A stretch of 64,000 bases of DNA, taken from the NCBI GenBank assembly GCA_009929265.1, contig SAAU01000002.1:14668-78667 (forward strand). The letters are read 5' to 3'. The notes beneath the pieces were generated by a model that was given only the letters and a program-made list of their open reading frames with translations, made no database searches and was not told the DNA's origin. The stretch is from Alphaproteobacteria bacterium (GTDB taxonomy: Bacteria; Pseudomonadota; Alphaproteobacteria; CASFRQ01; SAAU01). A program made the translations under genes and the position numbers. The number at the start of each line of letters is the position of its first letter. The stretch's first letter is position 1. Positions 1-42,361 of the stretch are shown here, piece by piece.

Positions 1-491
1 GTCAAAAGTCGTCCGCGCTTCAAAAGGAAGTTTGCGTTCAACCAAATAAGTTAAACATTTTAAGGTTTCTTGCTCTACATTTTTTCGGCAGGTGATTTTT
101 TCATATTTATCGAAGGGAGCTTTTATATCTAATCCCACCCAAGAAACAAGGGGCATAACTTCCTTAAAGCGTTCAAAATTCACCCCTGCTGTATGAAGAG
201 CAAGTTCAAACCCCATTTCTTTAATTTGTTCGGCAGCTTCCCTTAAGTCTTTTTGAACTAAAGGCTCTCCTCCGCTTAAAACAACTGCGGATAAAACTTT
301 TTTTCGTTTTTCTAAAAAAGCAAGAAAAGCTTCAAAAGAAGAAGCCCCTGAAAGAGGCTCCATCCCTTGAAGTGGTTTATTCTGGCAATAGGGGCATCTC
401 AATGGGCATCCTTGAAAGAAAACCGCGGATGTAATATGATCCGGCCAATCGACACTCGTAAAAGGAATATATCCTGCAAGAATAGGCATTT
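1..491 (-). CDS. nrdG: Anaerobic ribonucleotide reductase activating protein NrdG (radical SAM), 3' part truncated by window edge
   Basis: The minus-strand translation from the ATG at 489-491 reads MPILAGYIPFTSVDWPDHITSAVFFQGCPLRCPYCQN... The CPLRCPYC stretch is the radical-SAM CxxxCxxC motif. The ORF lies immediately downstream of nrdD and runs off the window edge. Confidence 0.8.
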
Positions 492-676
492 TATGCAACT
501 TTACTCTTACATGTATTCATCCGTTCAAAAGCCTTATCTTCGGTAAACCATTTGCGTTCTTTATATTCGCTTTGTTTCCCTTTGTTGAATTGAGAAACCG
601 GACGGAAATAACCCATAACCCGTGTCCAACATTCAACTTCTTGACGTTCTTCGTCTTTAAGTACAATTTTTTCCAT
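492..676 (-). CDS. Stand-alone glycyl-radical module of class III RNR, 61 aa: MEKIVLKDEERQEVECWTRVMGYFRPVSQFNKGKQSEYKERKWF...
   Basis: The ATG at 674-676 follows an AAAGGAGAG Shine-Dalgarno sequence. The peptide carries the RV(M/C)GY glycyl-radical signature that normally ends NrdD. The frame differs from the upstream nrdD ORF, which ends with TAA at 708-710. Confidence 0.6.
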
Positions 677-707
677 TTTTTCTCTCCTTTCTTTTATTTT
701 AACTGAA

Positions 708-2774
708 TTAAGACATTGAAACAACTTTTTTAAGCTCTTGCTCTTTTTCAAAAATAATTTCTTTGTCGCAAATCGGGCAATATTTATGAGCCCCTGAAAT
801 ATACCCATGTTTTGGGCAAATAGAATAAACAGGCGTAATTGTCAAATACGGCAATCTATAGTTTGTCAAAGCGGTTTTAATGAAATCCCGACAAACAGAA
901 ACACTTGAAACCCGCTCATTCATATAAAGATGAAGCACTGTTCCCCCTGTATACTTGGACTGTAATTCTTCTTGCATATCCAAAGCTTCAAACGGATCAT
1001 CGGTGAATCCTGATGGCAATTGGGAGGAGTTCGTGTAGTAAGGCGCTTCATTTGTTCCAGCTTGAAGAATATCTGGAAAGCGTTTCTTATCTTCTTTTGC
1101 AAAGCGATACGTCGTTCCTTCAGCAGGTGTGGCTTCCAAATTGAACATATGACCTGTTTCTTCTTGGAATTCAAGCATCTTTTGACGAATATGCTCCAAA
1201 AATTCAACTGCAAAATTATGTCCCCAATCGTCTGTAATGTCATGGGCATCATTTGTGAAATTGCGAATCATTTCGTTAATGCCATTCACCCCAATTGTAG
1301 AGAAGTGATTTCTAAGCGTTCCAAGATACCGTTTCGTATAAGGGAAAAGCCCTTTATCAATATGTTCTTGAATCGTTTTTCTTTTCATTTCTAAAGAGGT
1401 TCTAGCTAGCATTAACAATTCATCAGTTCTGGCAAGTAAAGCCTCTTTATTTCCTTTATTTAGATACCCTAATCGCGCACAGTTCAACGTCACAACCCCA
1501 ATGGATCCTGTTTGCTCTGCAGATCCAAAAAGCCCATTTCCTTTAGCCAAAAGTTGTCTTAAGTCTAATTGTAGGCGGCAACACATAGAGCGCACTTGCT
1601 TTGGCGATAAGCTGGAGTTAATAAAGTTTTGGAAATAAGGAAGACCGTATTTTGCCGTCATTTCAAACATCGCTTCTGCATTTTTAGAATTCCAAGGAAA
1701 GTCCTTTGTGATGTTATAGGTAGGAATAGGGAATGTAAACGGACGACCCTTTGCATCCCCTTGAGACATCACTTCAATATAGGCCCTATTTAGCATATCC
1801 ATTTCTTCTTGAAGATCCCCATACGTGAAATCCATTTGCTTTCCACCAATAACAGGGTGTTTTGCCTGCAAATCCTCTGGGCAAACCCAATCAAACGTTA
1901 AGTTTGTAAAAGGCGTTTGAGTTCCCCAACGAGAAGGCACATTCAAGTTAAAAATAAAGGATTGCATATTTTGTTTGACTTCTTCGTAAGACATCTTATC
2001 TACACGAATAAATGGGGCTAAGTACGTATCAGCAGAACTAAACGCTTGAGCGCCCGCCCATTCATTTTGAAGAGTCCCCAAGAAGTTAACCATTTGAGAA
2101 AAAGCTGTCCCTAAATGCTTTGGAGGAGCCGATTCGGTTTTATTTTGAACGCCGTTAAAGCCCTCTTCTAATAACACCCGTAAAGACCACCCTGCGCAAT
2201 ATCCAGAAAGCATATCCAAATCATGAATATGATAATCCCCAGCCCGATGCCGTTGTCCAATTTCTTCTGGATACACATGACTTAACCAGTAGTTTGCAAT
2301 TACCTTTCCTGCAATATTTAGAATCATCCCGCCTAAGGAATATCCTTGGTTTGCATTGGCACTTACTCGCCAATCCAACTTATCCAAATATTCATTTACA
2401 GAGGAAATGGCATCAACCGTCACTTTCTTATCTTGTCTTAAGACTTGACGTTTTTGACGATACGTAATGAAAGCTTTTGCTGTCTTAGAATAGTTTGCAG
2501 AGATTAAAACTTGTTCAATGATGTCTTGGATTTGTTCAATTTTTGGAATGGAATCGGGTTGAACTTTGTATTTTAAAACCTTAATGACTTGAGAAGTTAA
2601 TAAACGAGCCTCAAATACATCTAATTCTTGAGTCGTTTCTGAGGCTTTTAAAATCGCTTTCGTAATCTTTTCAACATCAAAAGGAACGCGTTTCCCATCC
2701 CGCTTACAAACCATTTGAAATGGCAGATTATAAGCTTCTTTCCCTTCAAACAAATCTTTTTGATCTAACAACAT
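708..2774 (-). CDS. nrdD: Anaerobic ribonucleoside-triphosphate reductase (class III RNR) large subunit, lacking the C-terminal glycyl-radical segment
   Basis: The 688-aa ORF has an N-terminal ATP-cone (KRDGKRVPFDVEKITKAILKA). A C-terminal Cys/His zinc-ribbon (CPKHGY...YCPICDKE) is followed by a stop. The nrdG activase is adjacent. Confidence 0.8.
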   Translation of the reverse strand: MLLDQKDLFEGKEAYNLPFQMVCKRDGKRVPFDVEKITKAILKASETTQELDVFEARLLTSQVIKVLKYKVQPDSIPKIEQIQDIIEQVLISANYSKTAKAFITYRQKRQVLRQDKKVTVDAISSVNEYLDKLDWRVSANANQGYSLGGMILNIAGKVIANYWLSHVYPEEIGQRHRAGDYHIHDLDMLSGYCAGWSLRVLLEEGFNGVQNKTESAPPKHLGTAFSQMVNFLGTLQNEWAGAQAFSSADTYLAPFIRVDKMSYEEVKQNMQSFIFNLNVPSRWGTQTPFTNLTFDWVCPEDLQAKHPVIGGKQMDFTYGDLQEEMDMLNRAYIEVMSQGDAKGRPFTFPIPTYNITKDFPWNSKNAEAMFEMTAKYGLPYFQNFINSSLSPKQVRSMCCRLQLDLRQLLAKGNGLFGSAEQTGSIGVVTLNCARLGYLNKGNKEALLARTDELLMLARTSLEMKRKTIQEHIDKGLFPYTKRYLGTLRNHFSTIGVNGINEMIRNFTNDAHDITDDWGHNFAVEFLEHIRQKMLEFQEETGHMFNLEATPAEGTTYRFAKEDKKRFPDILQAGTNEAPYYTNSSQLPSGFTDDPFEALDMQEELQSKYTGGTVLHLYMNERVSSVSVCRDFIKTALTNYRLPYLTITPVYSICPKHGYISGAHKYCPICDKEIIFEKEQELKKVVSMS

Positions 2775-2797: not shown

Positions 2798-2813
2798 ATA
2801 CTATATCTTGTGG
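2798..2813 (-). promoter_or_regulatory. Candidate NrdR-box-like palindrome (atactatatcttgtgg) in the nrdD 5' region
   Basis: It matches 12 of 16 positions of the acacaatatattgtgt consensus, recalled from memory. It lies 24 bp upstream of the nrdD ATG. No second in-phase box was found. Confidence 0.2.
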
Positions 2814-3184
2814 TTTTTATTTCTTTCTTACAAAAATCTTACAAAGAGAACAGATCTAAAGTCAAACGATATTTTTATTTAAATTTAAGAAAATTTTTAA
2901 CCCCTTCAAAAATATAAAGAATCTTTTTTCAAGATAAAAAAAGACTCTTTTTTTCATTTTTTCTTATTTCTCTTTTTTAATCCTTTAGAAGGCTTTGAAT
3001 ATCTGTTTTTTTCTTCTTTTTAGAATAAAAAAAGAAAGTTTGATTGGATGTTTTTTTATCTAAAAAAAGATTCCTTTTTTCCGACTCGTCTCTTTTTTTA
3101 TTTTTAAAACTTAAAAAAATCCCTCCTTAAAAAACTTGCGTTCTCTAAAGAGGGAATTTCATTTCCTAAACACGGCCTAAAGCG

Positions 3185-15158: not shown

Positions 15159-15896
15159 TTGAGAAAATTATTTTGGAGGATAGGTTATATGCAAAAGTTC
15201 TTGTTTTTATTTTTCGTTTTTATTCTTCCTTTAAAAGGGTTTTCTCAATACAAATCAGCAGACTCTTATGCGGAAAACATCCCTTTTGAAAGCGTTCAAA
15301 AGAAAACAGACGTCGTCCGTTATCTAAAGGCTTTTACAAAAGATGAGAAAATTCTGACACGTTTAATCGCCTCTTTTATTGTTTTTAATTTTGATGAAAA
15401 TACCTATAAGCTGAGATACGACAAGAGAAAGGAGACCTCTTTTCTGCCTCCCCTCGGAGTCGACTCGGGCGATGTTTTTATCACACGGGTTGGCACTTCT
15501 GATGATTTTGCATCTCTTTTTACAGAACTTGCAACTCTCGCAGGGCTTAAAGCTCAAACAATAACAGGCTATGCCGGTCATCGCATTACATCAAAAAATA
15601 AAAACGATTTGAAGGCCTCTTGGAATGCCGTTTATTTGGAAGATGAATGGCGCCTTTTAGATATAGCTTGGATGATGAAAGGTTCCTCTTTCGGGGCAAC
15701 TTTAAAAAATCTTGTCCAATATCAGGCTGAGTTAGAACGCCGTCAAGATTTGTCTTATTCGATTCGGAATCTTTCTAAAAATAAAAAGATTGATGAAAGA
15801 TACTTTCTTTCGACCCCTTCTTTTATGATAAAAACGCATATTCCTTTGGAAGACAAATGGCAGCTTCTTCCTGTCGCACGATACTTTCCGCTTTAA
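15159..15896 (+). CDS. Secreted transglutaminase-like domain protein with degenerate catalytic residues
   Basis: A signal peptide precedes a core that resembles the transglutaminase-like G-x-C-x-x-FA motif, reading GTSDDFASLFTELATLAGL. The His/Asp region (ASWNAVYLEDEWRLLD) has Ser in place of the expected His. Confidence 0.4.
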   Translation: MRKLFWRIGYMQKFLFLFFVFILPLKGFSQYKSADSYAENIPFESVQKKTDVVRYLKAFTKDEKILTRLIASFIVFNFDENTYKLRYDKRKETSFLPPLGVDSGDVFITRVGTSDDFASLFTELATLAGLKAQTITGYAGHRITSKNKNDLKASWNAVYLEDEWRLLDIAWMMKGSSFGATLKNLVQYQAELERRQDLSYSIRNLSKNKKIDERYFLSTPSFMIKTHIPLEDKWQLLPVARYFPL

Positions 15897-17383
15897 TTAT
15901 TTTTGCGAATCTTTCGAACGCCAGAATTAGCCATTTTTCCAGTCTTTAAGCCAGACCCGATAAGCATGTCTGCGGAATTTTTGGCCCCATCTCCTTTGAC
16001 GATTAATTTTCCTAAATTTTCCGTCGTTTTTAAGATTTTCCAAGAAATGAAAAACCACCCCATTGTCATCATTAAAAATTGAAGATCACCAAGAGCTTTT
16101 TGCCCCATCCCTATTAAAAAGGAGGTAAGCTTTTCTCCATTATCTGATTGTTCAGTTGAAATTGAAGAAACAATATCAAAAATATACGGAGAAATAAACG
16201 TTTCAAATAAGCTTAAAATAACCGGAATCATCGTGGCAAAAGAAATAAATAAAACCAAAGAAGAAAGAAAAATATTCCATCCAATTTGAGCATATTCTCG
16301 TGTTGATTTAAACACATAAGAGACCATCAAAAGCGGCAGTAAAATAACGACAACGCCAATCTTAATAATCGCATCTAAAAAATAAAACGGAATTAAAAAC
16401 ATCATCGCCGTAAAGCAAAAAATCAAAACAACAGCCGGTAAAACATACTTCACCTGAGGGGATTTTTCGTTATCTTCCAAATTCTGCGAGTCACTATTTT
16501 CATCCCAAACAATCTTATTTCCACGAGAATAAGACCACATAATCCGCCCCACAATAAGAGGGGAAACAAACTGTTTGTTAATTCGAGCCACCATACACAA
16601 AATATCACGCTGCATTTTTTGTGAAAAAACATCCGTAGAGCCAAAATCTGTTGAAATGAAATAATCATTTCTACAGTATTCTTCTTCTGGCTTTTCATAA
16701 ACGAAAGAAGGTGTTTTTTTAATCAACTGTTCGGTCAGCAAGTTTTTGTTATAAAATGTATTGGTTTCATCTATAGCGCTTGTATAGGCCAAAGTAGCAC
16801 TTATCGGCGTTGAAACAAGAATGCTAACCGCATTTTGAATTCCTGATGACGTTAAAAAAGAGCCGACAACAAGAGCCAATAACGCTTTTTGAAAAAGGGT
16901 TGAAATAAATTCAATATGATCTGCCGTTCCCAACCTAAAGAAATACAAAATGATTGTCATCAACATCCAAAAAGCCGTTCCCAAAGCTAAAAGTTGAAGC
17001 GTTGGGGTTAGGAGAATATCATTTGTCATCATAGCTACTTGGTTGATAGCAAAAAGGAAAGCTTCCATAATTTTACAGGGCCAACAGGTGTTTAAATCGC
17101 TCAAAAACTCTTTACTTGTTTTTATTTTTTCAGAGCAAATCAGGGTGGCCTTTCCCCCTTGTCTTAAAAAAGTTTCAATTTGACTTCTGTTATAGGAAAG
17201 TCCTTTGCTTGCACATCTTTCAGCAATCTCATCCACTTTTTTATTGATTTGAGTAGAGTAAGACGTGTTTGCCGCCATTTGTTTAAGCTTTGTTAAAATA
17301 TTTGATGTTTTGGCAAAAGAAGGCATTGCTAAAAGAAAAATAAATGAAAAGATGAGGGCTTTTTTATAAAAATTTTTCATCAT
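15893..17383 (-). CDS. VirB6/TrbL-family T4SS inner-membrane protein (rvhB6-like paralog 4)
   Basis: The 496-aa ORF has a signal peptide and at least six TM helices. A CWPC motif precedes the first TM. It is the last of four tandem paralogs, and its 4-bp start overlap with the upstream paralog indicates operon membership. Confidence 0.6.
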   Translation of the reverse strand: MMKNFYKKALIFSFIFLLAMPSFAKTSNILTKLKQMAANTSYSTQINKKVDEIAERCASKGLSYNRSQIETFLRQGGKATLICSEKIKTSKEFLSDLNTCWPCKIMEAFLFAINQVAMMTNDILLTPTLQLLALGTAFWMLMTIILYFFRLGTADHIEFISTLFQKALLALVVGSFLTSSGIQNAVSILVSTPISATLAYTSAIDETNTFYNKNLLTEQLIKKTPSFVYEKPEEEYCRNDYFISTDFGSTDVFSQKMQRDILCMVARINKQFVSPLIVGRIMWSYSRGNKIVWDENSDSQNLEDNEKSPQVKYVLPAVVLIFCFTAMMFLIPFYFLDAIIKIGVVVILLPLLMVSYVFKSTREYAQIGWNIFLSSLVLFISFATMIPVILSLFETFISPYIFDIVSSISTEQSDNGEKLTSFLIGMGQKALGDLQFLMMTMGWFFISWKILKTTENLGKLIVKGDGAKNSADMLIGSGLKTGKMANSGVRKIRKNN

Positions 17384-18645
17384 TTTAAAAACCCTCCGAC
17401 GAAACCAAGTGCTTTCTTTCCAAGAGCAAATCCCACAGCTTTCGCCTTTCCAAAAAATCCCTTAAGGACAGAGCTATCAGGAGCTCCCCCAAAGGATTTA
17501 GACAAAGAAAAGAAAATATTTACCAAAATAAAAATGTAAAGACAGACAGCAAAAACAAGCAAAAATTCCATAGATAAAGCTAAAGCATCTTTAATATACC
17601 CTTCAGAATCTGCGCCCAGAAAAGTATAAATACTCGCTCCATTTCCAACAGAAATATAGCTTAAAACAATCACCACTAAAACTGTAAAAACAGAAAATAA
17701 GAAAATTTGAATCAGCGAGCTGATTAAAAGTTTCCAAGCCTTTATCACCCATTTACTTGTTGCAGGGAAAACCCACGCCACCAAAATAAACGGCAATAGA
17801 GCCAACACCAAACAAGAACGAATCAATCCATCCAGTAAATAGAAAGGAAACACAATCGTTAAAGCCAAAAAGAGGACAAGCACTCCCCCTCCAACAAAGG
17901 CAGATGAAAAAGTATTCTGTGAAAAGATAGCATACCCAAAACTAATTCCTCTTGAGAAAGAAAGCTGAATTTCAAAAATAATAGCTTTCATCATTTCAAC
18001 TAAAGCAGCAGGAAGCATGGAATCGTTCCCTACTCCTCCAAAATGCGTGATTTCAAAGTTTTGTGTCAGCAAATCTATTGTCATATAAGAATTACAGGAA
18101 CTCACTCCAGGGGAGGCCAACACATCCAAGGAGGAAGTCATAAAAGCTTGAAATACAGGCAAAATCAAAGAATTAAAAATCCAAATAAAAAGAGTTTCTG
18201 ATGAAAGAATCAAACTGATAACAAAGGCTTTTAACAGAACGCTTAATATTTTTCGCCAAAAGTCTGTTGGTCGAGGATTCTTAAATTGAGAAATGAAATT
18301 CAAACTGTTAAAAACCAACCAAAAGGCAAGCCCTAAAGCCAAAAGAGTTCGACAATAAGAAGCCAAATTATTAAAAATTAAAAAGGTCAGCTTGCCCACT
18401 GTGTTTAAGACCACTTCATAAAGAGGACAGGCCCAACATTTTTCAAGCAAAGCCTTAAATCCAACCTCTTTAATTTCATTTCCATCGGCATCTTTTACAT
18501 AAGAAACACCACAAGCTTGAAGCGATAGCATCGCTGTAAAAAACAAAAAGACCAACACCATTTTTTTTGAAAAAAGCCCTCTCATTTCTTTTTTGAAAAA
18601 AGAAAAAGCTTTTTGAAAAATTATTTGTGTTGCCTTACAGTTCAT
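17380..18645 (-). CDS. VirB6/TrbL-family T4SS inner-membrane protein (rvhB6-like paralog 3)
   Basis: The 421-aa ORF is polytopic. It has a CWACPLYE motif before the first TM helix. Confidence 0.6.
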   Translation of the reverse strand: MNCKATQIIFQKAFSFFKKEMRGLFSKKMVLVFLFFTAMLSLQACGVSYVKDADGNEIKEVGFKALLEKCWACPLYEVVLNTVGKLTFLIFNNLASYCRTLLALGLAFWLVFNSLNFISQFKNPRPTDFWRKILSVLLKAFVISLILSSETLFIWIFNSLILPVFQAFMTSSLDVLASPGVSSCNSYMTIDLLTQNFEITHFGGVGNDSMLPAALVEMMKAIIFEIQLSFSRGISFGYAIFSQNTFSSAFVGGGVLVLFLALTIVFPFYLLDGLIRSCLVLALLPFILVAWVFPATSKWVIKAWKLLISSLIQIFLFSVFTVLVVIVLSYISVGNGASIYTFLGADSEGYIKDALALSMEFLLVFAVCLYIFILVNIFFSLSKSFGGAPDSSVLKGFFGKAKAVGFALGKKALGFVGGFLK

Positions 18646-18672
18646 TTTCTATTCCTTTGGAATCAAAGAGTT

Positions 18673-21099
18673 TTATGGCGTCGTTTTATTTTTTCGTTTT
18701 TCTATAGAATTCTTAATACTTGTCGAGGAGAGGGCAGCGACCGAAATTACCGCCCCTCCTGCAACATGAGCCCCCGCTCCAACAACTTGTGTGCCCTTTT
18801 TATTTATCTCGCCGCCAACGCTATTAGACGGGGCAGAAAAGTCTGTCACAGATTTTGCAATATCTGGGGCCATATCAATCAATTTAAAGGCAAAAAACAT
18901 CGCCATAATCCCCAAAAAGAGTTCGACACTTGAAAAATTAAGTTGCTCTCTTAATTTATCAGGTTGTGGATCTTCTGAAATAAATTCAAAAAAGTTGCAC
19001 GTCATCCCTGATTCACAGGTAAACGTCACTTCATTTGTTCCATTTAAGTTTTGAAGCGTTTCGGCATTACTTGCTGTCGGCAAAGCAAACGTCATAATTC
19101 TTAAAGCTATAATAAGCGTTAACGCAAGAGTGATGAACGTGAACACTGCCCCTACAAAGATGCTGAATGCTTTTTTAGCATAGCCTGCTGTTGCTGGGAA
19201 AACCCAAGCGATAATAAAGAGTGGAAGTAAAGCCCCTACGAAAGCTAAATGAATTAAAATATCGACAAATTTTAATGGCAAAACCACCAGTAAAACAAAA
19301 TGTCCTAAGAAAATGATAATCCCCATCATAAAGACATCAAGCGACCTGAAAAATTCAATAATGGCTCCCCAATCGCCAAAGCATATTCGTATCATGGTTG
19401 TTCCAACGGCCAATCCAACCATCAAACGAGAACTTGCTGTGCGAAGCAAACAGTCTATCGTTCTAAAAGAAGTTTCATTAAAGACAGAATCAGTCGGCAA
19501 ATCAATCTTTGTTTGATACGCCGTAGCACATGGATCTTTAGCCAACATAGAAATATCATCACTTAAATAAGACGCATCCGCCCAAGAGGTATCTGATTCC
19601 AAAATCTTCTGAGCAAAAATAGCACTTGTCTCGAAAACAGGGGAAAGAACTTTTCCGTAAATAAAGGACGGCCCTGCCGACAAAAGAGCCACCGCAACAA
19701 TCCCCTTAAACAGACCTTTTGACAACGTCGTAAAGAATTCGGCAGGATCCGCCCCTTGGAAAATGGTGATATATTTAATTACTTGGAATAGAAGCCAAAA
19801 AGCAATGCCGAGCGCTAAAAACGGCAAAAGTAAGTCTTTAAATTTATTAAATAATTCTGTGCAAACGATACTGATACTGCTATAAGCCTTGGCAAATAAA
19901 GGGCAGAACCAACACCCATAATTATTCTTTGAACTTAAATATTTTTCCAAAGTTTCCTTAAAAAATCCATCAAGTTTTGAAGAATTATAGCTTGTTGAGG
20001 CAAAAGAAAGCGCCGAAACAGAGGCATACGAATTAAACGCACTTAACGCGCTTTCAGATCCTTTTAAGGAATCGAAGAACGAATCGACCGTAGAAATATC
20101 AATATTCTTGCAGTCTTCCTCAGAGACAGTTGAATCCTCGCAAATATATTTTTTAATCAAGCTCATCTGAGCCCCGTTTAGCTTTGTTTCCTTCCCAGCC
20201 AAAGAATCGATTAAGCCTGTATTGGTGTCAGACGCGGACTTTAAAATATTGTGCATCGCCTTACTCTCGGGGTGATCATAGGTCTGCCCGGCAAAGGTTG
20301 TTGACACAATATCGTCTAATTTTTCGGATTTTTTTTCATCAACGGCCGTTAAAAGAGTCTGCGCCGATTGAAGTTCATCGGCCGTTGCGGTTCCTTTTTC
20401 AACTTTTTCATAAAGTGCTTCGTATTCCTCTTGGCATTTTTTTCTTTCAGCCGAGGTGCCATCAAATAAAGCCTCCCTTTGGATCTTATCCTTACACATT
20501 TTTTTGGCAACTTTGGAGACATCTTTAGGTGTGATTTTGGCGTCTTCTAAGGCACTCGCATCGGCATAAGTTGCAATATAGCACCGCTTCACATCATCTT
20601 GCGTAATTTTTGCCCCTTGAGATGTGCAAGACGCCCTGCCGTTTTCCTCATTATAAGCATTCATATCTTCAAGAGCTTTTTGAGAGGCGCTATCAGATAA
20701 ATTCTTCATACAAACAGGAAGAGCCGTCCCCGCGGAACAGCCTTCAGAAACCTCGGCCTGATAATCTGCAACATTTGCCCACATATCGCGGCAATTTTCG
20801 GCCCCCGTTTTAGAAGAAGCGCAGTTTTTACGTTGTTTTTGAAGAGTTTCAAACTGTTCAGGGGAAACTTCAATCGTTTTTCCATCTGCTGTTGTCAAAC
20901 GGCAAGCGGTGCAATCCTTATTTTGCCAAATTCCCCCACCAATACAGTGAGACTCAATCATTGAAACATTTTGAAGGTCTTGCTGACTTAAACCCCCGAG
21001 CGCATCCATATCCATTTGGCAGTTTGTTGCGAACGCAAACGGGACCTGCCCAAAGATCAAAAACAAAAACAACCCTGAAAAGCGAAAGATTTTTGACAT
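18673..21099 (-). CDS. VirB6-like T4SS protein with roughly 400-aa Cys-rich periplasmic N-terminal extension (rvhB6-like paralog 2)
   Basis: The 808-aa ORF has a signal peptide and a hydrophilic Cys-rich domain. A CWFCPLF motif precedes a polytopic TM core. The tail is hydrophilic and ends KTTP. Confidence 0.6.
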   Translation of the reverse strand: MSKIFRFSGLFLFLIFGQVPFAFATNCQMDMDALGGLSQQDLQNVSMIESHCIGGGIWQNKDCTACRLTTADGKTIEVSPEQFETLQKQRKNCASSKTGAENCRDMWANVADYQAEVSEGCSAGTALPVCMKNLSDSASQKALEDMNAYNEENGRASCTSQGAKITQDDVKRCYIATYADASALEDAKITPKDVSKVAKKMCKDKIQREALFDGTSAERKKCQEEYEALYEKVEKGTATADELQSAQTLLTAVDEKKSEKLDDIVSTTFAGQTYDHPESKAMHNILKSASDTNTGLIDSLAGKETKLNGAQMSLIKKYICEDSTVSEEDCKNIDISTVDSFFDSLKGSESALSAFNSYASVSALSFASTSYNSSKLDGFFKETLEKYLSSKNNYGCWFCPLFAKAYSSISIVCTELFNKFKDLLLPFLALGIAFWLLFQVIKYITIFQGADPAEFFTTLSKGLFKGIVAVALLSAGPSFIYGKVLSPVFETSAIFAQKILESDTSWADASYLSDDISMLAKDPCATAYQTKIDLPTDSVFNETSFRTIDCLLRTASSRLMVGLAVGTTMIRICFGDWGAIIEFFRSLDVFMMGIIIFLGHFVLLVVLPLKFVDILIHLAFVGALLPLFIIAWVFPATAGYAKKAFSIFVGAVFTFITLALTLIIALRIMTFALPTASNAETLQNLNGTNEVTFTCESGMTCNFFEFISEDPQPDKLREQLNFSSVELFLGIMAMFFAFKLIDMAPDIAKSVTDFSAPSNSVGGEINKKGTQVVGAGAHVAGGAVISVAALSSTSIKNSIEKRKNKTTP

Positions 21100-21188
21100 T
21101 TAAGATAAGCTCCCTACTAAAATTACAACAAGTATAGCAACGTTTCGACATAAATAAAAGCAAAAAGGCCGCATTAAGCCTTAAAAAA

Positions 21189-23369
21189 TCAAGGAGTCGA
21201 GCCCTTTTTCTTTTTAGCCTCTTCTTCTTTTTGTTTTTTGTGGAAATCGTCACGGATACTTTTGGCGGCGGCGTATGGCAAAACGATAGACTTGAAAGTC
21301 TTGCCAAGCATCGTGCCCCCCATATCGTTGGAAGAACCAGAGACAATACTTGAAGATAACGTATTGGAAAGGCCAAGCATTTTCACCACAATAAACATAG
21401 CGCCCAACAATAAATACGGGGCAGAGGTATAGAGTACCGAAATCTTTGTGCGTAAAATCTCTAATGTTTCCTTATCGTTTTTAAAAACATCTTCCATAAA
21501 TTCGTTCACATCAACGCCTAGCATGGTGACCATAAAATCGACCCCCAGCACCAAAAGCACTGAAATCACAATCAGCTGGAAACACGCGCCAATAAATAAA
21601 TCAAACGCCTTTTTTGTCATGGCTTTTTGGGTAAAAGGAAAGACCCACGCCACCACAAAAATAGGGAACAGCGCGGTCACCACCGCAAAATCAATTAAAA
21701 CATTCATCAGCTTAAAGGGAATCAACACCATCAAGGCAAAAAAGCTGATTAAAATAAAGAATCCTGAAAGCATGACATCCAAATATCGCAGAGAGTAAAA
21801 GGCTTTCCAAATCCAAAACCCACCATTTTCTTGAGAGGAAAAGACTAACTCCAATACATATTGGCCAAAGGCAAACCCCTGCGCTAAGCTCCAACTCGTC
21901 GTCCGTAAAAAGCAGTTGAAGGAATTATAAATATCCCGACTAAAGGGGCCCTTCGTTTCTTTTGGTTTTCTTCCAATAGCGCACGGATCTACAGATTCAA
22001 GGGACTTGGAAAGGCTGGGGTCAATCGCTTGGGATAGTTTAATGCGATTCTTAGAAACGTTCATCACTTCGGTTGCGTAAATGGTGGAAAATTCTACAAC
22101 GGGCTCTAATGTGTAATGGAACGCCACCTTTAGCCCAACCGACAGAAGGGCTGCCGCGACCAAACCACGGAAAAGTCCGCGGGAAAAGAGCGTCACAAAT
22201 TGTCCAAAGGAAGCAAACCCTTTTTTGGAGAAAATCGCCACATTTTTCAAAATCTGCCACAACATCCAAAAGGCCAACCCTATCGCCAATAGAATTTTCA
22301 AAAACGGGGTTAACACCCGATCAATCCCCATAGAAATATCGTTAATCGTGTCAAAAAAGATTTCAAATAACGGACAAGCGAAACACCCGGCGGAAAATTT
22401 ATATTTATCCAATAGGTCAAAATATCCCGATTTTATGTAAAAACTGTCTGCGGGTAAAGACAACCCCGTCATCATAATCGCCACATTTTTGGTCACCGCA
22501 TCATTAAGGACTGAAGCGGAACTATGAGTTAAAATTTTAGAAAAATCTTCATAAACCATTTCTTTTAATAATTTTCGTCTGGCTTCAGCTGTATCTGGTT
22601 CTGCAGAATAACCAAAATCTTCCAAACGACTTTTATCTATCGCCATGATTTCATCATCGGTTAATCCATTAACACTCATATCCCGAATTTGTTCATAGAC
22701 CTCGCTTGATTTTCCATTTTTATCTACAGTCGACAAGACTTTTTCCCGATAAACCAAATCCTCATTTTGGGTAAGGGTGTCTTCTAAGCTCTCTGTTAAA
22801 CTTTTCGGATAACATGAATTATAAACATTGCCATATTCAACACACTTTTTGTCTTTATAGTCCGACGCACAGTCTTGAAGAACCTCTGGAGTGATAATTT
22901 TTGCACCAGAACAGCCAAGTTGTCTATATAATGCTATTCTTGTTTTTTCTTCTAATTCATATTTCCCTTCGGCAAGTTCTTCTACAAAATCTTCTGGGGT
23001 ATAGTCACTGTTAAAATAGCTGGTGCAGGTTTCAACCAAAACCCCTGGTTTACAATCATACACCTGTTTTTGGGGTTGTTTTTCAAGGGCGGCAGCGTAT
23101 TCCTCCATAAATTTATCATAGGTGTCATCCCGAACGGATTGGGAAAAAAATTCATCCGCTTGTTCAACGGATTCTATGTCATCTTTAAATTTTTCAAGGC
23201 ATTCTTTATCGGATATATTATAAACAACCCGTTTATCTGTTTTTAATTTTGAACAAAATTCCTCAACAGACATGGGTTTTTGTTCTTCCTGCTCCTCTGC
23301 CGTTTGGGCATAGGAAGGGGCCCCCGTCAACAGGGCTAAAAAAAGAAATATGCCTATTTTTTTTATCAT
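21189..23369 (-). CDS. VirB6-like T4SS protein with roughly 330-aa periplasmic N-terminal extension (rvhB6-like paralog 1)
   Basis: The 726-aa ORF has a signal peptide (..APSYAQT). A CFACPLFE motif precedes the polytopic core. The Lys-rich tail ends GSTP. Confidence 0.6.
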   Translation of the reverse strand: MIKKIGIFLFLALLTGAPSYAQTAEEQEEQKPMSVEEFCSKLKTDKRVVYNISDKECLEKFKDDIESVEQADEFFSQSVRDDTYDKFMEEYAAALEKQPQKQVYDCKPGVLVETCTSYFNSDYTPEDFVEELAEGKYELEEKTRIALYRQLGCSGAKIITPEVLQDCASDYKDKKCVEYGNVYNSCYPKSLTESLEDTLTQNEDLVYREKVLSTVDKNGKSSEVYEQIRDMSVNGLTDDEIMAIDKSRLEDFGYSAEPDTAEARRKLLKEMVYEDFSKILTHSSASVLNDAVTKNVAIMMTGLSLPADSFYIKSGYFDLLDKYKFSAGCFACPLFEIFFDTINDISMGIDRVLTPFLKILLAIGLAFWMLWQILKNVAIFSKKGFASFGQFVTLFSRGLFRGLVAAALLSVGLKVAFHYTLEPVVEFSTIYATEVMNVSKNRIKLSQAIDPSLSKSLESVDPCAIGRKPKETKGPFSRDIYNSFNCFLRTTSWSLAQGFAFGQYVLELVFSSQENGGFWIWKAFYSLRYLDVMLSGFFILISFFALMVLIPFKLMNVLIDFAVVTALFPIFVVAWVFPFTQKAMTKKAFDLFIGACFQLIVISVLLVLGVDFMVTMLGVDVNEFMEDVFKNDKETLEILRTKISVLYTSAPYLLLGAMFIVVKMLGLSNTLSSSIVSGSSNDMGGTMLGKTFKSIVLPYAAAKSIRDDFHKKQKEEEAKKKKGSTP

Positions 23370-38000: not shown

Positions 38001-41000
38001 AAAACACCATCTTGTGCATTTTTATAAACACTATAGGCTTTTCCATTTGGCATTACATAAGAAGTCACATTTCCAAGTGCATTCAAAACATAATGAGAAG
38101 AAATCAACTTTCCAATCAAAGTTCCATTATTATCTACAACTTGATTTTGACCAATCACACGACCAACAAACATTCCTTTGTCATTCTTAATTGTTCCTTC
38201 TTCAGACATAAAGCCAATCACATCTCCATAAGAGCCAATCACTTTTGTATCATAAGGGACATAACTTCCCACAACAGATCCTGTTTTTGAAATCAATCGA
38301 TTGTCAAAGGTAATGGACAAATCTTTATCTACACCATTTGAAAGAATTTTGCCTTCAAAAGAAATGCGACCGATTAAATGTCCCTTTTCATCCAAAGCAA
38401 CCCCAGGAATCAACAATCGTCCAATCCATAATCCTTCAGGAGAAATAATTTTTGTTCCAAAAAGCGTTCCGAGTACATTTCCAAGACGACCATAAACTTT
38501 CCCGTCAACAGAAACTCTTCCCAAGAAACGACCGTTCATATCTAGAGCAGATCCTTGTTGAATCAAAGAGGCAATATGCTCCCCTTTATCTCCAACAGCA
38601 TTTCCATAAGGAAGGGCTTGAGCTAAATGCTTGCCTTCTAAATCCTTAACTTCCCCATTGAAATCTAAAGAGCCTTTAAGTTTACTATCTGTTCCAACAA
38701 AAGCGCCCAATCGAACCAAAGATCCAACATATTCTCCTAAAGGAGAAATCACATCAAACCCAAAAGTCAAAGAGCCAAACTCTTTTCCTTCTTTTCCAAG
38801 AATTTTTCCCTCAACGTTTACATACCCTAAAACGTTTCCTTCATTCCCGATTGCAAGAGAGAAAGCAGGGAAAACCCGTCCGATAACGATCCCTTTGTCA
38901 TCAACAACAGTTCTATCTAATAAAACCGTTCCAATATTTGTCTTATCAGAGGACAAAACAGATCCGTCTTGAGAAATAAGACCAATTTGTTCATTATTCC
39001 AGCCTAGAACAGCCCCTGTTGGCATAACGCCCCCAATGACATTCCCTTCTAAATTAATAACAGTTTCGTCAGCTCGAACAGATCCAATTTCTTTTCCTGT
39101 AAAATCTCTAACTTTCCCCTCGTCTTGAAGAGCTCCAATAATTTTACCCTCTAAATCAATAATTCTTGCGCCATCTTGAATTAAAGAACCCAAAATCTTC
39201 TTATCGCCTAAAGAGATAACCGTTAAATCCGGAAGAACTGTAGCAAAAGGATTTCCTTCTAAATCAAACCCTTTTCCCTTTTCGGCATTAAAACGACCTA
39301 AGTATTTTCCATCCATAGAGATAATAGCCCCACTAGGAGGAATGAAGCCAGTCACTTCATTGTTTAAATTGACAACTTGACCGTTTTGAAGGACAAGTCC
39401 GACTTTTCTATTTTTTTCATCAATGACATCAGATCCGGAAACTTCCCAAGGTTGAATAGCTCCAAAAGCATCCAAAATCAAGCCTTTCCAAGTAGAAGAG
39501 AGCAACATTTTTCCATTTGTATCAACCATGCTTTTATCAGGATTGACACATCCGATAACATTTCCTCCTCTATCAACAACTTTTCCGTCAACACGAACCG
39601 TTCCGATGATTTTTCCAGAAGCATCTAATGCATTTCCAGAAGGAGACGCCGCCCCAATAATCTGTCCTTTTTCGTCAATCACATTCTTTGTTTGATCAAC
39701 ACATCCAACCTTTTGTCCTACCGTGCTATAAACAGAACCATCTAACGCGATAAGGCCTAATAAATGACATCCTTCAGAAATGGCCACACCCCGTGGAACA
39801 ACAGCTCCGATGATTTTGGCATTCACATCTTTGACATAGCCAGAATCTGTCACATTTCCAATATAAGAAGAATTTTCGTTTAACACTTGACCATTTGGAA
39901 TCACATATCCGATTTGTTTACATCCAAATCCCACAACGATCCCATGAGGAATAACAGATCCCAAAACACGTTCTGGCATACCCACATGACCATTCGTCAT
40001 CAAGCACCCTAAAACATTTCCGTCTTTATCTACGGCTTTCCCTTCAGAATTGACAAAGCCCATAATCTTATTTTGAGCATCGATTAAAGCGCCTTCTCTG
40101 ATAACCTTTCCAACAGGAATCCCATTCATATTAAAGACATTTCCGTCAATAGAGGCAACCCCCGTCTGTTTTCCAGAGGCGTCTAAGACTTTTCCATCCG
40201 CAGAAACACGGCCATAGGATTGGCAAGCGCTTCCAACAGCAACACCCTTTGGAACAATTCCTCCAATGATATTTTTATTATCATCTAAAACAAACCCTTC
40301 TGGGGAAATCATCCCCATTTTTTGGTAAGAAGAATTAACCACAGATCCGTCTGTTAAGGTAATTCCCATCACTTTTGATGTGAGATTAAGAGCAACCCCC
40401 CAAGGCATAACAGAACCAATAATTTTACCTTGTAAATCTGAAACTAATGCATTGGAAAGAACCGTTCCAACAACTGTTCCACTTTTATCTTGAACCGTGC
40501 CATCTTCCTTAACTCGACCTAAAACTTCCCCTTGCATATTCAAAACAGGAAGAAGAGGAACGACACCCCCTAAAATTTCCAGCTTAGAATTTACAATTGT
40601 TCCATCTGGGAGTGTTTTTCCAATTTTCTTATCTTCAAAATCAACCACTTCTCCAGTTGTTAAAACTTTTCCTATCACTTTGTTTTGTAAGGAAAGAGGA
40701 ATTTTTTGAGGTTGAGCAATTCCAATAATATCCCCTTCTTTATTCATGACCATTTCGCGGTCAGAATTCGTCCCAACAACATTTCCGTTTTTATCAATCG
40801 TTCCAACCAAACGACCGCTTTTATCGTAGACTCTATCCCCCACGACTTGGAATCCTGTCGGACGCCCCTTGTCATCCACAATTTCTCTTCTAGAAAGAAT
40901 CTTAAACCCTTTAATCTCGTTGCCTTCTAAATCAAATAGCTTTCCATTTTCATCAGCGTGCCCGACTAAAGTTCCGTCCTCGTCATAAACATCCTTTCCA

Positions 41001-42361
41001 ACAACACGTAAAGAGGTTGGATTTCCATTTTGATCTAAAATAACTTTTCCCAAAACAGCTTTCATACCGGTTGGTTTTCCGTCTAATCCCAAAACGTTTC
41101 CGTTTTCATCAACCGTTCCGACCAAATTTCCATCTTTGTCATAGACTTCTTTTCCAATAACGCGAAGAGAAGTTGGACGTCCATTTTTATCCAAAACAAC
41201 GCGACCTGGGACCGCCTTCAAATCCAAGATTTTTCCGTCTTTATCAATAGAGCCGACAAAATTGCCTTTACTATCATAAACTTCTTTACCGACAACTTGA
41301 TAATCTGTCAATTTTCCGTCTTTGTCGACAATAAGAGTTCCGTCAACGGCTTTTAATCCTGTTGAAGAACCATCTAATCCTAAGACATTTCCGTCTTTAT
41401 CAATCGTCCCGATAAGATTGTTCTTTTCGTCATAAACGCGACCTTTAATCACTCGGAATCCTGTTGGTTTCCCATCTACTCCGATAACATCTCCGCTTTC
41501 AGAAATATTACCAATCAAGTTTCCTTTTTTATCGTAAACTTTGTCGCCAACAATCTTCCAGCCTTCCGAAACCTTTCCTTTAGAACCGATAAAAGACCCT
41601 TCTTCAGAGAAAAATCCAACAATCTCGCCATCTTTATCAACGACATTTCCATTTTCATCAACATAGCCGACGACTTTACCGTCTAAACCAACAACAACAC
41701 GACCTTTTGTGTAATCCTTTTTATCGCCACCGTTTTCACAAATAACGCAATTTTTCGAATCAATTGATTGGCCTATAATCGTAATTAAAGTCTTTTGTTC
41801 TGCCGTTTCCAAACGTTCATTAATACTTAAATCTTTCCATTTTAAGAGAAGATTGTTTTGAATACGCCGAATTGAAATTGGATTCCAGAGCACTTTAATT
41901 GTGCAGGAATCTTCAGCAGATAATCTTAAATTTTCAGGACATTTTGATTCAATTTCAAACCCCTCAGATTGGTTTTCAACAAAAAAGGCAGAAAGAAATT
42001 GAATATCGCCGCCCTTTGCCGTTAAAGTAATAATTGCCTCAGCGTGACTACCAATAACAACTTGATCCAATTCAACTTTTTTTGGAGCAACTTCTAAAGA
42101 AACCGGAACCTTTTTAACTTCCGATAAGACCTTTAAAGAAGTATCTTCAACTTTCTTAAACGGATCTTCCGTCGTTGTTAAATCAGGTTCAATAACGTCT
42201 ACTTCCTTTTCTGGTTCATGGAATAAATATCCCAAACCAATAAAAAAGAAAACAACAGCCAAAAATCCAATTAAAAATAAAATTCGATTAGATTTTTTTA
42301 AATATCTCTCTGAAGAGCTTAATAATTTATCATCTTTCATTGTGTTTTTACAACCGAACAA
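35078..42361 (-). CDS. virB10: T4SS VirB10/TrbI-family protein, giant form (2,427 aa) with a roughly 1,700-aa internal repeat array
   Basis: The layout is a short cytoplasmic N-terminus, one TM helix (ILFLIGFLAVVFFFIGLGYLF), a huge repeat region, and a canonical TrbI/VirB10 C-terminal domain. That domain reads ...AVIVRSIDSRYPNVPVTAVVERNIYTEDGRNIIIPSGSRVIGSMSG...ISWNRLIRPDGSAF and is followed by an acidic, Pro-rich tail. Confidence 0.8.
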   Translation of the reverse strand: MFGCKNTMKDDKLLSSSERYLKKSNRILFLIGFLAVVFFFIGLGYLFHEPEKEVDVIEPDLTTTEDPFKKVEDTSLKVLSEVKKVPVSLEVAPKKVELDQVVIGSHAEAIITLTAKGGDIQFLSAFFVENQSEGFEIESKCPENLRLSAEDSCTIKVLWNPISIRRIQNNLLLKWKDLSINERLETAEQKTLITIIGQSIDSKNCVICENGGDKKDYTKGRVVVGLDGKVVGYVDENGNVVDKDGEIVGFFSEEGSFIGSKGKVSEGWKIVGDKVYDKKGNLIGNISESGDVIGVDGKPTGFRVIKGRVYDEKNNLIGTIDKDGNVLGLDGSSTGLKAVDGTLIVDKDGKLTDYQVVGKEVYDSKGNFVGSIDKDGKILDLKAVPGRVVLDKNGRPTSLRVIGKEVYDKDGNLVGTVDENGNVLGLDGKPTGMKAVLGKVILDQNGNPTSLRVVGKDVYDEDGTLVGHADENGKLFDLEGNEIKGFKILSRREIVDDKGRPTGFQVVGDRVYDKSGRLVGTIDKNGNVVGTNSDREMVMNKEGDIIGIAQPQKIPLSLQNKVIGKVLTTGEVVDFEDKKIGKTLPDGTIVNSKLEILGGVVPLLPVLNMQGEVLGRVKEDGTVQDKSGTVVGTVLSNALVSDLQGKIIGSVMPWGVALNLTSKVMGITLTDGSVVNSSYQKMGMISPEGFVLDDNKNIIGGIVPKGVAVGSACQSYGRVSADGKVLDASGKQTGVASIDGNVFNMNGIPVGKVIREGALIDAQNKIMGFVNSEGKAVDKDGNVLGCLMTNGHVGMPERVLGSVIPHGIVVGFGCKQIGYVIPNGQVLNENSSYIGNVTDSGYVKDVNAKIIGAVVPRGVAISEGCHLLGLIALDGSVYSTVGQKVGCVDQTKNVIDEKGQIIGAASPSGNALDASGKIIGTVRVDGKVVDRGGNVIGCVNPDKSMVDTNGKMLLSSTWKGLILDAFGAIQPWEVSGSDVIDEKNRKVGLVLQNGQVVNLNNEVTGFIPPSGAIISMDGKYLGRFNAEKGKGFDLEGNPFATVLPDLTVISLGDKKILGSLIQDGARIIDLEGKIIGALQDEGKVRDFTGKEIGSVRADETVINLEGNVIGGVMPTGAVLGWNNEQIGLISQDGSVLSSDKTNIGTVLLDRTVVDDKGIVIGRVFPAFSLAIGNEGNVLGYVNVEGKILGKEGKEFGSLTFGFDVISPLGEYVGSLVRLGAFVGTDSKLKGSLDFNGEVKDLEGKHLAQALPYGNAVGDKGEHIASLIQQGSALDMNGRFLGRVSVDGKVYGRLGNVLGTLFGTKIISPEGLWIGRLLIPGVALDEKGHLIGRISFEGKILSNGVDKDLSITFDNRLISKTGSVVGSYVPYDTKVIGSYGDVIGFMSEEGTIKNDKGMFVGRVIGQNQVVDNNGTLIGKLISSHYVLNALGNVTSYVMPNGKAYSVYKNAQDGVLTFGGSVIGPDGFIRGKLAPEGLSLGLDLTPFGNVFESGEVIKESQSVARAFPNSVVFDASNVTTGMITKPNVVVDKTGKVVGRTSVSNSVVNFDGRRIGTLMPYGSVLTNENEYVGEVLKSGVVVDGVGRPLGVVASDGIILNKNQDINGRMVAGGVAVGQYSKDGYGTMPILGMNAPQGLWIDFAGQLTGRTLLDGQVVDMQNAPQGKVNDYGVVIKNDGTVNGTVVPLSVAVGENCSVLGTVQFDGTVKDASGALKGRVTTNGLVKGDHMFNLLGKVLPKGLVVDRCRIVGQPRPDGKIINGQGEVVGCLNPDKSAQTLQGEKIGGLIENGNMVISKQGDLLGRVLPNGNVVDMTGSFLGCASYDGKVMDQNGSEIGCVFEKGVVVDGQGNVQGLVKENGEVISSAGELLGYVQCSGKVVDENNKVVGSVVSGELLKDKSGKVIGSLNEKGEVSSLSGDLLMKIGKDGKLSNAAGDEIGNLQKDGSVLDTSGKNLGLAEDLLSKKESESAKGVRIFIDDDVFDVSGNGSILNNVGDIVGYIGEDGRPYATDGSSFVKKKKDNQEENQTRRVPPRPQKKQPKYSPQEVAQIQALMIARRQGMKQRLGSATIVPERRVLARAKIKKDKDWGLGKIVSTYPVDMSRMILKDKAIPAVIVRSIDSRYPNVPVTAVVERNIYTEDGRNIIIPSGSRVIGSMSGSPGTNRVAKMEISWNRLIRPDGSAFNFQATSGDAQGRGGVSAYLDEMFLAKYGKPILTSSVISALTYVTASDEIVTENSDSGTVAQSDRAQAAQDARANFINDMQQIFKDLIDDSSSTPPVVFVPSGTRLTIFSNEDLWLRSEDEDEEDLVKELGEADKKAKNAPQEYKEGQRQIPTTVQTKDGRYIQGSGTYKPLDPQDAKVRAEDNPVPISDTPAPKPANPTGKSLSLNEIYSGNQGVVSYPVSAGDKIAEPVLPSTGDIQKSQTMSPDLF
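36650..41750 (-). repeat. Coding tandem-repeat array inside virB10. The 12-13-aa units have the form (V/I)x(V/Y)(D)xxGxx(I/V/L)G, and parts are organised in roughly 50-aa higher-order units
   Basis: Examples include VYDKKGNLIGNI, VYDEKNNLIGTI, VLGLDGKPTGMKAV and VYDKDGNLVGTVDENGNVLGLDGKPTG. Higher-order DNA repeats occur, for example ttccgtctttatcaat(a/c)g.gccgacaa near 41230 and again near 41390. Confidence 0.75.

Follow-up and report, generated by a model that had tools for sequence, protein, structure and literature searches.

Glycyl radical enzymes (GREs) are damaged by O2, which destroys the glycyl radical through a backbone cut at the radical glycine. To our knowledge, the only known repair of O2-cleaved GREs is that of pyruvate formate-lyase (PFL) by the spare-part protein GrcA (YfiD). 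The PFL-activating enzyme (PFL-AE) installs the radical on free GrcA/YfiD, which then completes PFL (PMC13450708, PMC8683613), and a 2026 review treats spare parts beyond PFL as an open question. Among ribonucleotide reductases (RNRs), a 2015 paper described the class II enzyme NrdJ as the only split RNR in non-viral organisms (PMC4520616). Here we describe a class III RNR locus in a 64-kb stretch of alphaproteobacterial DNA (contig SAAU01000002.1; the whole 64,000 nucleotides analysed are called the window below), in which the nrdD gene ends ahead of the glycyl-radical loop and this loop is encoded by a separate 61-aa open reading frame (ORF) between nrdD and the activase gene nrdG. Judged from sequence comparisons, the locus very probably encodes a two-polypeptide class III RNR, with the radical subunit acting in trans.

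The large ORF was assigned to class III NrdD by the NCBIfam model NF006126 (1118 bits, cutoff 548), and an exact protein match (P0282) carries the source name 'MAG: ribonucleoside triphosphate reductase [Alphaproteobacteria bacterium]' (MAG, metagenome-assembled genome). Its stop codon lies 19 residues past the Zn site, the C-terminal end reading …CPICDKEIIFEKEQELKKVVSMS (…YCPICDKEIIFEKEQELKKVVSMS), and it lacks the RVxGY radical loop that belongs to the same polypeptide in other NrdD proteins. The loop is found on the 61-aa ORF as …ECWTRVMGYFRPV…, with the radical glycine Gly22 (codon 613–611) in the motif WTRVMGYFRP. The Pfam profile PF13597 (NRDD) is divided between the two products, its positions 2–529 of 562 matching the large ORF (E 7e-174) and positions 530–561 the small ORF (E 8e-9); NF006126 is covered from 3 to 663 by the large ORF and from 649 to 682 (of 684) by the small one, and in alignment with T. 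maritima NrdD (4COI) the large ORF corresponds to residues 109–614 and the small ORF to 612–644. By these alignments, the large and small ORFs together are one complete NrdD, with the break point between the Zn site and the beta-strand leading to Gly22; the small protein supplies the beta-hairpin bearing Gly22 and the C-terminal tail with which NrdD usually ends. The small ORF is in a different frame from nrdD (offset 1), and the spacer ahead of it also holds an in-frame TAA after the nrdD stop (coordinates in Table 1). No second nrdD, small ORF or nrdG was found elsewhere in the 64-kb window. This layout had been proposed in an initial annotation of the sequence, with the nrdD TAA soon after the Zn-ribbon, a Shine-Dalgarno (SD) site and an ATG about 30 nt further on in another frame, the radical signature on the 61-aa ORF, and nrdG beginning 1 nt past its end; all of these details held, the radical signature being placed where PF13597 positions 530–561 match, and base 490 alone separating the small ORF stop from the nrdG ATG (489–487).

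The small protein shares several properties with GrcA/YfiD of E. coli and Y06I of phage T4. All are small stand-alone proteins carrying a radical glycine in a glycyl-radical domain, in each case the cognate radical-SAM activase is presumed to act on the small protein, which would complete a large catalytic barrel in trans, and both kinds are encoded by chromosomal genes unlinked to the enzyme and by phages. The initial annotation had proposed a radical domain supplied in trans, by analogy with GrcA/YfiD. This analogy gains further evidence from orphan paralogues in the same genomes and from phage-borne copies (described below), which parallel chromosomal grcA and T4 Y06I. The small protein nevertheless falls outside the GrcA family, because its domain is NRDD-type (PF13597, 61 aa) and not of the PFL type (PF01228, about 127 aa in GrcA); PF13597 was its only Pfam match, only NrdD models matched among those of NCBIfam, and no PF01228 match was reported. 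Its predicted target is ribonucleotide reductase, that of GrcA formate-lyase, and whereas the enzyme rescued by GrcA is full-length and already possesses a radical domain, the operon-encoded small protein is the only radical domain and so would be obligate.

With NrdJa/NrdJb, the class II enzyme of Pseudomonas aeruginosa and other Proteobacteria, the locus has in common a chain broken at its C-terminal region, adjacent operon genes and fused relatives, a resemblance of gene layout only. NrdJ depends on B12 (adenosylcobalamin), NrdJb (229 aa) bears redox-shuttle cysteines and not a radical, and no orphan or phage copies of it are reported, whereas the enzyme described here belongs to class III and its second piece carries the radical glycine. 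Single-chain class III NrdD proteins (phage T4, T. maritima, P. copri, S. thermophilus) have the same fold, ATP-cone, finger-loop Cys, Zn site, RVxGY loop and adjacent NrdG, but in these a single chain runs on from the Zn site to the radical loop, while here the linker is cut into two genes. Class I RNRs (alpha/beta) offer an analogy of functional logic in that a stable radical is held on a separate, smaller, replaceable docking subunit; that subunit is unrelated (ferritin-like NrdB with a tyrosyl radical or metal centre), and its radical transfer is long-range, as opposed to the direct barrel insertion envisaged here.

The distribution of the split was examined by a scan of one genome per GTDB species, which returned at least 577 loci; the best 80 were classified, together with nine from exact protein look-ups and the window. 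The nrdD/small ORF/nrdG operon was present at 53 loci (window counted), 35 loci were orphans with neither nrdD nor nrdG within 4 kb, and two were truly fused (L058, Chthoniobacteraceae; L066, Blastochloris). The split form thus accounted for 53 of the 55 nrdD-linked loci, a split-to-fused ratio that is biased by the choice of the 80 genome loci for similarity to the small protein. The initial annotation had suggested a comparison of nrdD C-termini, regarding fused genes in all relatives, along with further disruptions at the locus, as signs of a decaying pseudogene, and on the question of fused relatives the outcome was the opposite. As in NrdJa/NrdJb, two adjacent, co-oriented genes are accompanied by fused orthologues. 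Among 47 distinct operons, the gap between the nrdD stop and the small-ORF ATG ranged from -4 to 197 nt (median 29), the small ORF was in relative frame 0, 1 or 2 in 15, 15 and 17 operons, respectively, an SD-like site preceded it in 43, and the median gap to nrdG was 15 nt; ATGA overlaps at five loci suggest translational coupling. Most of the other split loci came from gut or rumen alphaproteobacterial MAGs, the remainder including Acidobacteria, Pleomorphomonas and one Acetobacteraceae MAG, and one (L075) lies in the complete genome of a cultured isolate, Telmatobacter bradus DSM 23630.

Both products bear the marks of selection. In 46 aligned large subunits, the motifs YCAGWSL, SMCCRL and NLEATPAE and the Zn ligands CPxHGY…CPxCD were unchanged, and the tail motif CPxCDxE(L/K)IAxK(R/Q)K was conserved in relatives. 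In a 23-sequence alignment of small proteins, 19 residues including Gly22 were invariant, and the small-ORF core had a median dN/dS of ~0.13, with most pairs synonymous-saturated, indicating purifying selection on the coding sequence. Divergence of the large and small proteins was in step (r = 0.77, a value reached in 0 of 1000 permutations). Given the variable gaps and frames, the dN/dS values and the invariant motifs, neither a single indel, nor pseudogene decay, nor a conserved recoding signal explains the pattern, and by comparison of these sequences the split arrangement is ancient, conserved and under purifying selection. The initial annotation had argued for a real split over an indel artefact, a view upheld by the 47 distinct relatives that share the three-gene layout with variable gaps and frames, and the pseudogene that it had offered as an alternative fails on the low dN/dS and invariant catalytic motifs.

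The position of the break is itself characteristic. Between the Zn site and the radical strand, the clade has a linker of ~35 residues (a helix, then a Gly/Ala-rich segment) compared with ~5 residues in T. maritima, and in sequence alignments the split falls inside this clade-specific linker; at the split point, the two fused proteins read …FCPKCDAARAEQKRAEGKGADLADDERQPCEIWTRVMGY…, passing through a Gly/Ala-rich linker into DDERQ…. In a midpoint-rooted neighbour-joining tree built from 46 large subunits, all the split ones formed a single clade, with the two fused proteins as its sister. This tree fits a single ancient split that later spread both vertically and horizontally; the scenario is provisional because the tree sample was chosen by small-protein similarity.

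Two further observations were made on these operons. The activases of split systems (median 231 aa, n = 51) have a conserved C-terminal extension of ~28 aa (…FFxDxxLxxxLxxxFxxFxxR), which is absent from both fused-type relatives (202 and 205 aa) and from one split locus (L071); the window nrdG is cut at residue 163. With two fused comparators only, the extension might serve to dock the free small protein. In addition, one locus (L011, CAVDQP010000052) is labelled Holdemanella biformis (Firmicutes) and has an nrdD 80% identical to the alphaproteobacterial gene of the window, probably through mistaken binning or labelling of the public entry.

Searches with the 61-aa protein extended the family beyond operons. 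The query gave 187 matches, and all 120 of those listed were stand-alone proteins of 54–98 aa (mostly 55–70 aa) with a common core, named only 'hypothetical protein' in their sources. A search of cluster representatives (50% identity clusters) gave 1,639 clusters at E ≤ 1e-3, of which the best 150 were all 54–152 aa, so that the detached module occurs far beyond chance. Small proteins have a cysteine just before WTRVMGY, at one of two positions (PVECW or PCEVW) in 260 of 262; it corresponds to small-ORF residues 14–16 (about 629–637 in the window), where T. maritima NrdD has no Cys. Cys-rich tails (CxC, CC, CxxC; for example, EKCACVVGK and CCSCEIKAA) were seen in 57% of operon copies and 40% of orphans, examples being found among P0003, P0005, P0008, P0044 and L036–L050, and the large-subunit tails of some relatives (L043, L049, L063, L070) end in QACAC or QACSC. 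Such tails resemble the C-terminal redox-shuttle cysteine pairs of class I/II RNRs; the small protein of the window has a single tail Cys (NTCKSKVA). A degron-like C-terminal ending was also considered and set aside as too weak, a final Ala being present in 27% of small proteins against 14% Ala in tails.

The orphan copies made up 35 of the 88 unfused loci, and their cores were intact (dN/dS ~0.14), with an SD-like site ahead of 26 of the 33 distinct copies. In several MAGs, one or two orphans were present besides the operon copy, with 66% to 100% core identity between the two kinds. Two chromosomal contexts recurred across species: orphans of group A lie directly upstream of rnhA (RNase HI) and near infC, and those of group B have an outer-membrane beta-barrel gene on one side and a transglutaminase-like gene, then alr, on the other. 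Other orphans are located in prophage-like DNA. No other GRE was seen in orphan neighbourhoods, and a radical-SAM gene near the group-B orphans, considered as a candidate activase, was rejected as a distant RlmN/Cfr-like protein. One orphan (L025, CAZXTR010000008), the third copy in a single MAG, looks decayed, having a TTG start, no SD site and GYFHLVS in place of GYFRPVS. At loci L004–L006 (4417–5004), in a prophage-like context, the start of the small gene is overlapped by a ~190-aa membrane protein containing WWRRWFGGG, which recurs next to the small gene in six viral loci (cluster c15) and has no PHROG or Pfam match.

The small protein is also widespread in viral DNA. A scan of IMG/VR revealed at least 310 viral contigs encoding it, and 79 of the best 80 viral loci had neither nrdD nor nrdG within 5 kb. 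The recurrent neighbours were endolysin (23 loci), tyrosine or serine recombinases (18), RuvC, tail proteins and a reverse transcriptase-like gene, the small gene adjoining replication or lysis genes. In one contig (L100), it ends a replication module comprising DNA polymerase I, a gp2.5-like single-stranded DNA-binding protein, a Cas4-type exonuclease and RuvC, and in another (L093) it follows baseplate and tail-fibre genes. In the PHROGs database, the protein corresponds to phrog_4132, of "unknown function". A tblastn search of 50,697 GenBank phage records gave no close homologue, but two weak matches of ~45% identity, the annotated one lying within a gene for anaerobic RNR; uncultivated contigs are thus the only known source of the phage copies. 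In a single viral contig (L105, IMGVR_UViG_3300045988_172461, 71.5 kb), a split nrdD core immediately precedes the small gene, and this locus breaks off before any nrdG could come into view.

Sequence signals upstream of nrdD suggest NrdR control of the operon. The NrdR-box-like palindrome in Table 1 was the only site in the window to fit the NrdR-box consensus with no more than 3 mismatches, and similar sites were present upstream of nrdD in 29 of 50 relatives (L011, L013, L016, L024, L029 and others), at a density of 2.1 per kb against a background of 0.014 per kb. The genes nrdD, small ORF and nrdG are probably transcribed together under NrdR control. Such sites were also found 77–108 nt upstream of five of the 35 orphans (L037, L041, L073, L083, L089; ~0.3 expected), which appears to tie at least some orphans to the RNR regulon, and at 0 of 79 viral copies. 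In the rest of the window, two regions stood out: a giant ORF of 2,427 aa on the minus strand (35078–42361), with a TrbI/VirB10-like domain, many beta-flower repeats (PF21785, PF21784) and DUF3659, and four consecutive large ORFs, also on the minus strand (15893–23369; 496, 421, 808 and 726 aa), with no Pfam match at E ≤ 1e-5.

Table 1. Features of the split nrdD locus, with positions in the window
Feature	Position	Strand	Details
nrdG, radical-SAM activase of NrdG2 type	1..489	-	Partial, 163 aa visible, leaves the window; TIGR02495 161 bits (cutoff 131); PF04055
CX3CX2C motif of nrdG (CPLRCPYC)	408-385	-	Activase gene adjacent, as for other NrdD
Small ORF, detached glycyl-radical module	491..676	-	61 aa (MEKIVLKDEERQEVECWTRVMGYFRPVSQFNKGKQSEYKERKWFTEDKAFERMNTCKSKVA); ATG 676-674, TAA 493-491
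Intergenic spacer	677..707	-	31 nt; SD AAAGGAGAG at 690-682, serving the small ORF
nrdD core	708..2774	-	688 aa; ATG 2774, TAA 710-708; ATP-cone, barrel and Zn site, without glycyl-radical loop
Large-subunit C-terminal tail DKEIIFEKEQELKKVVSMS	711..767	-	Predicted helical; first half of the clade-specific linker holding the split
Zn-ribbon ligands ICPKHGY…YCPICD	765..821	-	Cys653, His656, Cys666, Cys669; aligns to T. maritima SVCEDGH…CPVCG
Finger loop RSMCCRLQLD	1563..1592	-	MCCR double-Cys (Cys398/399), thiyl radical site; SMCCRL invariant 46/46; double-Cys motif class assigned per PMC9669993
SGYCAGWSL	2181..2207	-	Conserved beta-A cysteine Cys193; YCAGWSL invariant in 46/46 aligned large subunits
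ATP-cone, allosteric activity site	2445..2714	-	Residues 21-110; PF03477, E 4e-20
NrdR-box-like 16-bp palindrome CCACAAGATATAGTAT (gene strand)	2798..2813		24-39 nt upstream of the nrdD ATG
Promoter-like TTGACT-18-TAAGAT	2836..2865	-	Upstream of nrdD; consensus 9/12; site number in the region not above shuffles
Terminator-like hairpin and T-run after secA	3120..3155	-	16-pair stem, then TTTTTTT; separates the nrd operon from the upstream gene

A mechanism can be proposed for the two-polypeptide enzyme by combining these observations with what is known of GrcA. NrdG, with S-adenosylmethionine, would take the Gly22 hydrogen from the small protein, whether that protein is free or loosely bound, and the hairpin of the small protein would then dock in the barrel of the NrdD core beside Cys398/399, with catalysis proceeding as in fused enzymes. 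Cleavage by O2 would hit the 7-kDa peptide at Gly22, while the 688-aa core would survive and accept a fresh copy. By analogy with GrcA, we propose such an exchange, or spare-part, role for the small protein tentatively, rating its chances as close to even at best; the orphan and phage copies and the NrdR-box-like sites at five orphans lend it indirect support. Chromosomal paralogues and phage copies would enlarge or take over the pool of exchangeable radical subunits; during infection, a phage-encoded version of ~60 aa, activated by the host NrdG, would complete the host NrdD core and allow deoxynucleotide (dNTP) synthesis. The broader picture, that of a widespread autonomous glycyl-radical family for class III RNR in which the operon copy is obligate, the paralogues are a reserve and the phage copies plug into the host core, is possible, though we hold it with some doubt. 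In P. copri NrdD, the radical domain is made dynamic by dATP binding (PMC11226230), and in a split enzyme the corresponding effect could be regulated subunit release.

Several observations weigh against a detached radical subunit that docks in trans and is exchanged. Besides the bias in the split-to-fused ratio given above, structure prediction is ambiguous on docking: AlphaFold2 modelling of the concatenated pair with a 69-sequence alignment gave an NrdD fold with a Gly-tipped hairpin (mean predicted local distance difference test score, pLDDT, 70.7; predicted template-modelling score 0.62), which Foldseek matched to the class III RNR fold in the PDB (probability 1.0, TM 0.55–0.66), but the radical domain of this model scored about 50–67 and the finger loop below 50, too low for a docking claim to be drawn from it, and without an alignment pLDDT was 36. 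Furthermore, the conserved Cys of some orphans is at a position unlike that of the operon copy in the same MAG (PCEVW versus PVECW), and those orphans could have a different partner. A real and functional split might also be neutral, the small protein being a permanently bound, stoichiometric subunit that is never exchanged and the unlinked copies having an unrelated function or none. Tight operon linkage and the ATGA overlaps point to co-translation in stoichiometric amounts, there is a split class II RNR of no known advantage (PMC4520616), and a break in a disordered linker costs little. A fixed 1:1 subunit, however, leaves the extra unlinked copies unexplained: the orphans are intact, with SD sites, low dN/dS and chromosomal contexts conserved across species, some have NrdR-box-like sites, and hundreds of phage contigs carry the module alone. 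On balance, we consider a neutral split unlikely, though a serious contender.

The unlinked copies, those of phages especially, could instead be decoys that absorb NrdG activity or block the barrel of the NrdD core, or they could serve another GRE. Their occurrence without nrdD or nrdG, and the differences of some orphans in the conserved Cys position and C-terminal tail, would fit such a role, yet Gly22 and the WTRVMGY(F/H)RP…N.GK core are intact in phage and orphan copies, and an inhibitor needs no radical glycine. With the L100 gene in a phage DNA-replication module, consistent with more dNTP supply, and with no other GRE near the orphans, we regard this explanation as improbable. Recoding, by programmed frameshift or stop-codon readthrough joining both ORFs into a normal NrdD, is more improbable still. 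In the window, no stop interrupts the frame of the small ORF in the 44 codons ahead of its ATG, a stretch that overlaps the 3' end of nrdD (ORF 491–808), but among relatives the corresponding open frame is often 1–5 codons (for example, L018 and L001), the three frames are equally common, the gaps vary widely, and no conserved slippery site is present; in 43 of 47 relatives the small ORF comes with an SD and ATG of its own, and no nrdD precedes the orphan and phage copies. The remaining explanation is a sequencing or assembly indel, or a decaying pseudogene. The window comes from a MAG, in which a single indel could make such a split; the recurrence of the architecture in 47 distinct assemblies obtained independently and in the finished genome of an isolate, relatives that are not all fused, the low dN/dS and the invariant catalytic motifs leave this explanation with a negligible probability. 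We therefore retain a two-polypeptide class III RNR with its radical subunit acting in trans as the preferred reading of the locus.

In the literature searched, we found no description of a split NrdD or of an NrdD-type spare part. The scope of the finding, as judged from sequence matches, is wider than one locus, comprising a large family, as yet without a name, whose members are detached NrdD radical modules encoded in operons, by orphan genes and by phages. Several hundred 'hypothetical proteins' could thereby be given names, and truncated-looking nrdD genes need not be pseudogenes. The locus and its relatives constitute a testable candidate for an essential enzyme whose radical cofactor is a separate, replaceable and horizontally transferable gene product. 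If the proposed role is true, PFL would be joined for the first time by another glycyl radical enzyme with a spare-part system, and the phage gene would be about the smallest auxiliary metabolic gene to reprogramme an essential host enzyme. Collectively, these observations suggest a way in which gut and peat bacteria exposed to fluctuating O2 may keep an O2-sensitive RNR, and point to a very cheap means by which phages may control host dNTP supply.

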